This document shows positions 48,401-51,400 of a DNA stretch of 64,000 nucleotides, one piece after another. Made by a program: the position numbers. The stretch is from a plasmid, in NCBI RefSeq assembly GCF_054482595.1, contig NZ_JBTHVH010000001.1, one strand, 5' to 3'. The first letter of the stretch is position 1. Each line of letters begins with the position of its first letter.

Positions 48401-51400
48401 AACTGGAGCTAATTCCTGTGTGTCAAGCACAAGTTCCCTCCTACGTTGTCAGGAGGTAATGGTATGCAAAGTAACTTCTCAACCGGTCATTTGTTGCTTA
48501 AGAGGCATTTCTATTGAGGTACGAATCGATAATCCTTTGTAACTTTTCAAGAATGAGCCTGTTATTGATGCTGCAAATAATAGTCACGCAATTCTGAAGA
48601 CTTTCATCCATACCCTTATATTCCGCGAAATACATGCCTATAAAGCCTGCAAGTACGGCAGCAATACACTCGGCCATCAATTGCCTGTATGACGCTTCGT
48701 AACGTTTTTCACGAACCCCATTCAGAAACGAATGCACCCCGCCAAGGATGGAGAGGAGCATTATTGTGAAATCACACATAACTATTTCCTTAATAGTGAA
48801 TTAAATATCATTGGGAAACGGTATGTACTTTGTGATTTCCACACATACTGGTTTTTGTTAATTAAAATCCGCAGCTTGCTATAAATAACGATAGTGAGCA
48901 GAAAATATGCTAATAGGCTATGTACGCGTATCAACAAATGAACAAAACACTGCTTTACAACGAAACGCTCTTGAAAGCGCAGGATGTGAGCTAATTTTTG
49001 AGGACAAGGCGAGTGGAAAAAAGGCTGAACGACCAGAGTGAAAAAGGCTTTTGATAGGTAAACTCTGGTCGTATGAAAGTTAAATTTGCGTGGGTGCAGC
49101 ATGCGCTCACTCTTGAGGCATGAACGGTAATCATCTGATAACTTGTAGCTCGATTATCCGGACGCACTGGAACCAGTCGATGCTTCCAGCGATCCAGATA
49201 TTTCATTAAATGGACTACGCCTCCGGGAACGCTGGCCAATTGACATCTGGTGCAGTGCTGGTATCCGTTGCGGTCACCGCATCGATATAATCCAGCACAG
49301 CGTTAAGACGGGTGGTTTCAGCCTGCGTAAGATTCCGCCCGGCCTGTAATTTCAGTTGAATAAGACTAATGGAAGCCATTGCGGTATCAATCAGCGACTG
49401 TTTTTTCTGTTCAGCGTCAGCTACCAGTTCATCATGAGAACGTTCCGGAGTGGGTGGCGCAGTAAATCCCCCGTCTGAATACACCCAGCCGATTCCGGGC
49501 TGCTCACTGATATCAGAAATATTAATGAGCTGCTGATTATCCGGCACTGTGAATTCAGCCTCGCCATCCCAGACAATGACATTCACAACCATCCCATTTT
49601 CAATAACTGCATATGATGTATTCATTATGCAAACTCCTCGATAATACAAATCCCTGCAGCGCCTTTCCCGCCCGTCATACTGGTTCCGCTATAACCGGCA
49701 TCGTATGCACCACCGCCGCCCGAACCATATGCCCGACCGATAACGCCACCGCCAGCGCCTGCGCGACCACCGCCCCCCCAGAACGATGATCCTCCTTCAC
49801 CACTGACGCTGATATTTCCGGACTGACCGTCACCTCCATGCCCACCAATAATGCGGACATCACCAGTATTCGGCGCGCCTCCATTACCACCGTTCGTGTT
49901 TGTGACTCCTACTTTCCCGCCGCCTTCACCGCCAGGGGCTATTACCGTTCCGAACGAGCTATCACCGCCCTTGAGGCCGTTCGTCGCACCAACACCGCCG
50001 CCCCCACCTGCGCCGATAGTGACTGGATAACTATTCTGTGTCGGGGTCATTATTGAAATTATTGTCCCACCGGCCCCACCGCCAGCACCGAAAAACGTCT
50101 CGTTATTGGATGTAGCCTGGCAGCCACCACCTCCGCCACCGCCGCCCGTAATTGTGACCCTGATTCGTTTTGTTCCTGGCGTCGGGGTATACGTACCTGA
50201 TGAAGTGAAAACCCGGGTATTCACCAAACGCCCAACATATCCGCTTGAATCGCTCAGGCCAAGGTTAGCAGCAGTTAAAGTAATATTTGCAGAACCATCA
50301 AACTTAACACCGTTGATAGTGCGTGCAGTCTGTAGTTTCGTTGCGGTTGCGGCATTACCGGTAGTGCTCTGATTACCTGCTTTATTCACGCCCGGCAGGT
50401 CGATATTGGCACTACCATCGAATGACACTCCGCCTATTGTGCGTGCTGTTTGCAGTTTTGTTGCAGTTGCAGCATTGCCGGTAGTGCTCTGATTACCTGT
50501 TTTATTCACGCCCGGCAGGTCGATATTGGCACTACCATCAAATGACACCCCGCCGATTGTGCGTACTGTTTGCAGTTTCGTAGCGGTTGCAGCATTGCCG
50601 TTCAAACTACCATTGATGCCGCCAGTAACATTGAGTCCATTACCGATCGTAACAGTACCATTGGCATTGTTAATGATAAGCGGCCTTAAATTATTATAGG
50701 TTCCCAGGCTGTTACCCGAATTGGTCAACATGAAATATGTGTTTGAACCATCGTTTCGGATAAAGAATCCGTAGTTTCCGTAGGCAATGCGCAGACCATT
50801 CGCCGATTTTGAAATGATCTCACCAGTAGCCGTTAAACCGCCGTTGAGATTTCCTCCGGTTATTGGTAATGCGCCGACATCCGTGGCGGTCGGTTTAATG
50901 TGCGAACTGTAAATTACATATACAGTTCCATCTGTCAGGCCTGTTGGTTTATTCGCTGTATAAGATGGTGATGTATGAATCGTTACGCTGGCGTTACTGG
51001 TATAATCCCACTGAATATTAACACGTGTGGTGTAATTACCTATTTCAACATAAACATCATAGGTATCACCGGATGTATTCACCCATGCAAAATTAGTAAA
51101 TCCAACCGATGTCCGTCGCCATAACGCACCAGTAAGACCTTTTGGATTCCCATTTCCCGCACGAAGAACAAGTTCAGATATACCAGCCTGCATAGGGGAG
51201 TTAACATTATATCCAGAACCACCAATCAGGCTTATGTAAACCACGGAACTGGACTGTGGCATGGTTACAGTTGCCAGCTTGAACCATCCAGTACCACCAC
51301 TAAAAGACATTGTTGTTGAGTTGATCGTGCCTATAGACCTTGGAGTTAGCTCAATGTTTTTAGAACCGTCAAACAACACCCCATTTATAGTTCTAGCGGT

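Follow-up and report, generated by a model that had tools for sequence, protein, structure and literature searches.

A truncated and decaying cin invertase gene and the likely loss of tail-fibre switching in a P1-like phage-plasmid

Can a P1-like phage-plasmid that carries only the beginning of the cin invertase gene still switch its tail fibre? We examined this question in a stretch of 64,000 nucleotides from contig NZ_JBTHVH010000001.1 (NCBI RefSeq assembly GCF_054482595.1), hereafter called the window, which is part of a P1-like phage-plasmid of about 91 kb. A remnant of cin lies between lydC and the tail-fibre-assembly gene (tfa), the position that cin and the invertible C segment hold in P1. 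The region is very probably a non-functional, decaying pseudogene of P1 cin that was produced by one old deletion or replacement and that left the fibre fixed.

Invertases of the Hin/Gin/Cin type need a full catalytic domain, an E-helix, a C-terminal helix-turn-helix and two inverted sites. The cin stump is an open reading frame (ORF) at 48907-49041 on the plus strand, with an ATG start, a ribosome-binding site (RBS) at 48896-48898 and a TGA stop at 49039-49041. It encodes 44 aa including the catalytic Ser9. Residues 1-43 of the peptide (MLIGYVRVS...) are those of P1 Cin, and the sole difference is Glu44, which is Gly in P1. It matched the Pfam Resolvase family (PF00239, E=3.2e-11), at profile positions 2-51 of 145 only, and the DNA at 48780-49013, which takes in the sequence upstream of cin as well as cin nt 1-107, was 100% identical to P1. 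The initial annotation had recognized a Hin/Gin/Cin-type N-terminus with the catalytic serine, and both comparisons bear this out. The complete catalytic domain (~145 residues, with the DRLGR region and the E-helix) is not encoded, owing to the in-frame TGA at codon 45. The C-terminal helix-turn-helix was also missing: when full-length P1 Cin was searched against the whole window with tblastn, no significant match extended past Cin residue 74.

The control elements of cin were located by carrying over coordinates from the P1 annotation (NC_005856) on the basis of 100% identity. The predicted promoter region (48785-48868, plus strand) would contain P2cin at 48785-48811 and P1cin at 48836-48868, the latter with its -35 element at 48836-48841 and its -10 element at 48863-48868. 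The putative recombinational enhancer (sis) of Cin-mediated inversion lies at 48925-48996, and its 72 bp have the same sequence as the P1 enhancer (31678-31749). Judged by sequence identity, this enhancer is thus retained in a window that holds neither a recombinase nor a cixL partner. Promoter- and terminator-like sites in 48500-49700 showed no excess over shuffled sequence, and the spacer between the stump and tfa gave no Rfam matches at E<=1.

The way in which the reading frame ends differs from what had been proposed. The initial annotation described a frame slip at an A5 run, a stump of about 45 codons with no recombinase sequence after it, and about 160 bp of plain non-coding spacer. The A run reads GGCAAAAAGG in P1 and GGAAAAAAGG in the window and is equally long in both, which indicates a C>A substitution and no slip. 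The in-frame TGA goes back to P1 GGG TTA AAA, which became GAG TGA AAA with the loss of one base. Recombinase sequence continues past this stop: alignments to cin of P1 and of the P1-like plasmid NZ_CP067234 and to further cin stumps identified 49042-49111 (plus strand) as cin nt ~140-217 (codons ~47-72), in which many bases are substituted, one base has been deleted and an 11/12-bp microdeletion lies at ~49045. Consistently, tblastn found Cin residues 57-74 at 49062-49115 (TLVVWKLDRLGRSMRHL vs TLVV*KLNLRGCSMRSL), out of frame and with stops inside. The interval from the stump stop to the tfa stop is ~173 bp and is made up of this cin remnant and, beyond 26 bp of unassigned origin, a relic of a second tfa gene described below. 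Errors of sequencing or assembly, or restoration of the gene through programmed frameshifting, would find a reason in the A runs near the stop and in nothing else. Identical or near-identical structures occur in dozens of independently sequenced complete plasmids, the A run carries no indel, and the C-terminal two thirds of the invertase are not in the window, so that either explanation is vanishingly improbable.

Crossover sites were sought over the whole window by scanning half-sites and full 26-mers against the P1 cixL and cixR halves and the hix consensus. A single genuine site was found, an orphan cixR at 52679-52704 (TTCTCTTAAACCAAGGTATTGGATAA), which equals P1 cixR, scored 24/24 and lies at the boundary between the constant (Sc) and variable (Sv) parts of the tail-fibre gene S. 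No partner cixL was detected in the 64-kb window; only one of the two required sites is therefore present. The second-best 26-mer, at 48836-48861 on the plus strand (TTTCCACACATACTGGTTTTTGTTAA), scored 17/24, with its right half matching the hix consensus at 11/12. It sits between the -35 and -10 elements of P1cin, is unchanged in P1, and has CT as its core dinucleotide, against AA in cixR. It may be the pseudo-site that earlier work on P1 called 'cixPp'.

With two thirds of its catalytic domain absent, no E-helix, no helix-turn-helix and a single crossover site to act on, such a fragment should be unable to invert the fibre gene. The anatomy is read directly from the window, and the loss of fibre switching through C-segment inversion is well supported in that it follows from what these invertases need. 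A tblastn search of the whole window revealed no Cin-like or Tfa-like coding sequence besides the stump and the live tfa. The view that C inversion had been lost and the fibre fixed agrees with these results, since a working invertase, a cixL and a second S/U set are all missing from the window. A complete invertase with a second S/U set is absent from the window and was found in its relative NZ_CP067234.1.

The region nevertheless preserves a trace of a second fibre set. The initial annotation had counted one S gene, one chaperone gene and no inverted set; this holds for the genes of the window, where we found one Sv and one tfa, but the second set has not vanished entirely. It is reduced to a ~105-bp, frame-broken 3' relic of an inverted tail-fibre-assembly gene (tfa', in the U' position) at 49138-49243 on the plus strand. 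The relic shares 79-84% identity with the 3' end of the inverted gene in tail-to-tail tfa pairs, which occur in hundreds of E. coli prophages as well as in P2-like phages and P1-like plasmids. Its translation, LDYPDALEPVDASSDPDI...KWTTPPGTLAN*, matches LDYLDALELVDTSGAPDIEWPTPPAVQAR* of phage P2-T22 tfa', and its reading frame is broken by a 5-bp insertion. The relic and the live tfa overlap tail to tail by 29 bp, as do the corresponding genes of P2-T22, and this arrangement indicates an ancestor with two assembly genes, that is, with an invertible segment. Both the window tfa and the relic are of the P2/e14/lambdoid type, not of the P1 U/U' type. In P2-like phages and in e14/Rac-type prophages of the Pin family, the tail-to-tail, 29-bp-overlapping tfa/tfa' pair represents the arrangement from which the relic would stem; compared with these segments, the window keeps only the last ~105 bp of tfa' and no invertase.

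The same lesion was widespread. Copies that covered >=80% of the locus, at 92-100% identity, were counted in 34 PLSDB plasmids and, among 5426 complete E. coli genomes, in 54 (~1%). For NZ_CP060916.1, identity was 100% across the 1301-bp query that spans the locus. In eight aligned plasmids, which take in IncY backbones as well as rep_cluster_1704 backbones whose holin regions are unrelated and whose cin begins with a D6-like 5' end, the cin/tfa' junction, the 11-bp microdeletion and the relic insertion were identical (8/8), and these shared marks point to one ancestral event. Exactly this truncation also occurs in other P1-like plasmids whose fibre ends in the same glycine-rich tip; the initial annotation had proposed to look for it in P1-like genomes with the long S allele. 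The stump ORF was open in all eight.

Two stump lineages could be distinguished. They are 87.7% identical over 49014-49137, compared with 95-98% in the flanks, and each has private changes relative to P1; both features fit neutral decay. In the sister lineage, to which pSvP1 (PMC6906374) belongs, another 18 bp of the relic are missing. This plasmid has the window's cin/tfa' junction, 11-bp microdeletion and relic, and differs in the extra 18-bp relic deletion, a 51-codon ORF and ~12% divergence in the decayed part. The locus is also mosaic: after the stretch of 100% identity to P1 at 48780-49013, divergence rises to 15-20%, and CP058619 and CP043746 carry a D6-like cin 5' end on the same distal stump. 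The occurrence of P1-like or D6-like 5' ends on one distal stump shows that crossovers inside the stump moved the cassette between backbones.

The deletion junction itself lies at 49112-49137: cin homology stops at ~49111, and tfa' homology starts at 49138 in all relatives. These 26 bp may be a variable part of the lost tfa'. A 12-mer within them, CATGAAC(A/G)GTAA, matches P2-T22 tfa' nt 276-287 and is exact in the sister lineage. This match is suggestive and not significant alone, and MAFFT did not align the 12-mer to those nucleotides. Other short-word BLAST matches of the 26 bp against eight related loci were at chance level. A possible 10/12 match of the junction to cin nt 241-252 was consistent with chance and was set aside.

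Aberrant action of the invertase had been proposed as the cause of the deletion, with a half cix site at 49038-49056 as its scar. In this explanation, a quasi-cix within cin would have recombined with a cix-type site past U', leaving AAAAAGGCTTTTGATAGG at the junction. Cin uses quasi sites at low frequency, and the element at 49046-49057 (minus strand, CTATCAAAAGCC) does match the hix consensus half-site at 10/12. However, its partner half matches at 2/12, so that the motif at 49038-49056 does not form a site of two 12-bp halves around a 2-bp core (right 10/12, left 2/12), and scores of >=10/12 occurred at 22 half-site positions in the window. At the same position the sister lineage reads GCTTTTGAGAGG (8/12) and P1 reads GCTTTCCAGAGG; as the sister lineage has the same junction, the resemblance to cix stems from later substitution. 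The motif is flanked by cin homology on both sides and is therefore not the junction of the large deletion. It lies within the cin remnant at the microdeletion, whose 11 bp are far too short for a synapsed serine-invertase reaction. At the actual junction, the best cix-like 26-mer (49112-49137) scored only 14/24, unremarkable for the window. With cixL wholly gone and cixR untouched, a Cin-made deletion would need two quasi sites recombining together. Neither endpoint of the deletion is a genuine cix site and cixR is in place, so that nothing points to aberrant Cin action, and we give this explanation a very slight chance.

The course of events that we favour is that a single old deletion or replacement took cin from ~nt 218 on, together with cixL, Sv' and most of tfa', sparing the last ~105-130 bp of the inverted tfa'. 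What remains are the cin promoters, the RBS, 44 codons, the enhancer, ~70 bp of degenerate cin, the tfa' relic and the orphan cixR. The loss probably came about through illegitimate recombination of the ordinary kind or through replacement of the cassette, perhaps by way of two steps with an SJ46-like intermediate. The stump-plus-fibre cassette has since been carried to other backbones through homologous recombination whose crossovers fell inside the stump, and the fixed fibre would consist of Sc and a glycine-rich Sv with one Tfa chaperone. Two points weigh against this account. Searches of PLSDB and the complete E. coli genomes gave no ancestor with a complete tfa' of the window allele above ~84% identity, and the lack of one with a full tfa' at >=90% leaves the right endpoint of the deletion and the origin of 49112-49137 uncertain. 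In addition, the stump retains an intact promoter, RBS and ORF and could still yield a 44-aa peptide, which we presume to be inert.

The two-step course deserves attention of its own. In it, an incoming P2/e14-type inversion module (pin, Sv' and tfa'/tfa) would have truncated cin, and pin, Sv' and most of tfa' would have been deleted later. The P2/e14/lambdoid type of tfa and relic accords with such an origin, as do Salmonella phage SJ46 and CP098993.1. Both resemble the window in having a P1-like backbone in which a 5' cin stump adjoins lydC and the fibre module is not of the P1 kind, and they differ from it in that a complete invertase of the pin type follows the stump on the opposite strand, together with a tail-to-tail tfa'/tfa pair; they are presumably still able to switch fibres. 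No other stump class is as frequent in E. coli genomes as this architecture. On the other hand, the stump breakpoints differ (cin nt ~177 in CP098993.1, ~241 in SJ46 and ~217 in the window) and hence do not come from one event. NZ_CP067234 combines the same fibre tip with a full-length P1-type cin, and short-word BLAST against the eight related loci detected no pin-derived sequence at 49112-49137. We regard the two-step course as possible though doubtful. SJ46 as the direct precursor was rejected because its tfa and fibre have no DNA-level match to the window and its stump breakpoint is different. In the extracted loci, the stumps occupy 3349-3530 in CP098993.1, 3628-3679 in NZ_CP027199.1 and 4508-4750 in SJ46.

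Truncation of cin was not confined to this lineage. Among the complete E. coli genomes, 413 matched P1 cin plus cixL, of which 140 covered >=80% and the rest fell into partial-match classes; a full P1-type cin is thus present in only about a third of the genomes with a P1 cin match. At least four independent truncations were found (at cin nt ~52, ~177, ~217 and ~241), and all of them kept the 5' end. The proportion of full genes and the independent stumps indicate that truncation of P1-type cin is common and recurrent. In the shortest stump, that of NZ_CP027199.1, a tfa' pseudogene is joined to only 52 nt of cin.

Such regular retention of the 5' end raises the question of whether the stump is kept for a function, either through the 44-aa peptide, as promoter, enhancer or Fis-binding DNA for the neighbours, or as a homology arm of the fibre cassette. 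The perfectly P1-like 107 nt and upstream sequence beside a decayed remainder, the ORF open in 8/8 aligned plasmids, the movement of the cassette by crossovers within the stump and the repeated truncations with a kept 5' end are all in line with it. However, codon 10 of the CP098993 stump is an in-frame TAG and the enhancer of this stump is heavily substituted, and the 52-nt class is shorter than the enhancer; these argue against selection on the peptide or on the enhancer. High 5' identity is also expected from recombination with the intact cin alleles of other P1-like plasmids, and the peptide comprises only a third of the catalytic domain and nothing of the DNA-binding domain. A kept function is thus highly unlikely. 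A narrower proposal, that the 5' end of cin is a preferred boundary and homology arm for exchange of fibre cassettes among P1-like and D6-like phage-plasmids, also seems unlikely, if somewhat less so. If it were true, with the enhancer and promoter DNA or the stump aiding exchange, the pseudogene would be more than debris and would function as a landmark for recombination.

The fibre genes next to the pseudogene define what has been fixed. The single S tail-fibre gene (49625-54139, minus strand, 1504 aa) consists of a P1-type constant part, a long repeat-rich variable part and a glycine-rich end domain. The segment 52605-54300 is 93-94% identical to Sc of P1 and of NZ_CP067234, and the C-terminal 491 aa of S match Pfam Gp34_trimer and Gly_rich_2. 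The variable part (49625-52680, minus strand) spans ~1020 aa, about twice that of P1, with many copies of a ~40-aa repeat (…GNAATATKLQTARTIGGVSFDGSANIDLPGVNKAGNQSTT…) ahead of the Gp34_trimer and Gly_rich_2 end. The length of the repeat region varies among relatives, from ~1.1 kb in NZ_CP067234.1 to 2.3 kb in the window. The single live tfa was taken from the ORF list at 49215-49625 (minus strand); its 136 aa start from an ATG that overlaps the S stop and match Pfam Caudo_TAP (E=2.8e-22). The ORF spans Caudo_TAP profile positions 25-131 of 131. The NCBI annotation pipeline (PGAP) labels the tfa of NZ_CP020522.1 'incomplete, missing N-terminus', and equally long Tfa genes are annotated as intact in SJ46 and NZ_CP081794.1. 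The gene at 49215-49625 is probably a genuine short Tfa. NZ_CP081794.1, a phage-like plasmid of 43.7 kb that is not P1-like, carries tfa and the glycine-rich fibre tip at 88.6% identity (2965-4022 of the extracted locus), with baseplate J/V genes and an acyltransferase downstream, and it is a candidate example of the donor type for the fibre tip. On the other side of the remnant, the minus strand at 41789-48779 carries ddrB, ddrA, darA, hdf, lydB, lydA and lydC in the P1 order.

P1 (NC_005856) has cin at 31660-32220, cixL, Sv'-U'-U-Sv and cixR; the window shares with it the promoters, the RBS, cin nt 1-107, the enhancer and cixR, as well as the synteny of lydC, cin, fibre genes and Sc. The window differs from P1 in that its cin stops at codon 45 and persists in decayed form up to codon ~72, it has lost cixL, Sv' and U', its fibre tip is glycine-rich and its chaperone is a Caudo_TAP protein of the P2/lambdoid type. 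NZ_CP067234.1 (pSBF45b, IncY, P1-like) has the window's tfa and glycine-rich fibre tip (92.8% identity over 49161-50275), the same cixR across the 26-bp site and the same type of tfa' relic. It differs in its full-length cin (561 bp), cixL, Sv' and complete P1-type U', in a shorter middle of S, and in a relic that is shorter and without the 5-bp insertion. That relic, from a different tfa' 3' end, directly follows the U' stop (2936-3040 of the extracted locus); the invertible segment of NZ_CP067234.1 is therefore itself composed of two fibre modules that illegitimate recombination put together.

The cin remnant is a pseudogene of an ordinary kind: it is widespread and already known from both annotation and publication. 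PGAP describes the identical stretch of NZ_CP020522.1 as 'recombinase family protein, incomplete, missing C-terminus'. Venturini et al. 2019 (PMC6906374) reported a partial Cin ORF in pSvP1, with the switch and variable host specificity presumably lost, and a 2022 survey (PMC9603915) listed lydC-cin-Sv'-U'-U-S as one of eight regions that vary greatly among P1-like phage-plasmids. The present analysis adds, modestly, that the stump is longer and more decayed than it seems at first, that a tfa' relic and an orphan cixR accompany it, and that one old event appears to be shared by its carriers. These findings have little significance beyond correct annotation, although a fixed fibre is useful for host-range prediction and for transduction tools. 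They fit the picture in the existing literature of the cin/fibre locus as a replacement hot spot in P1-like elements.

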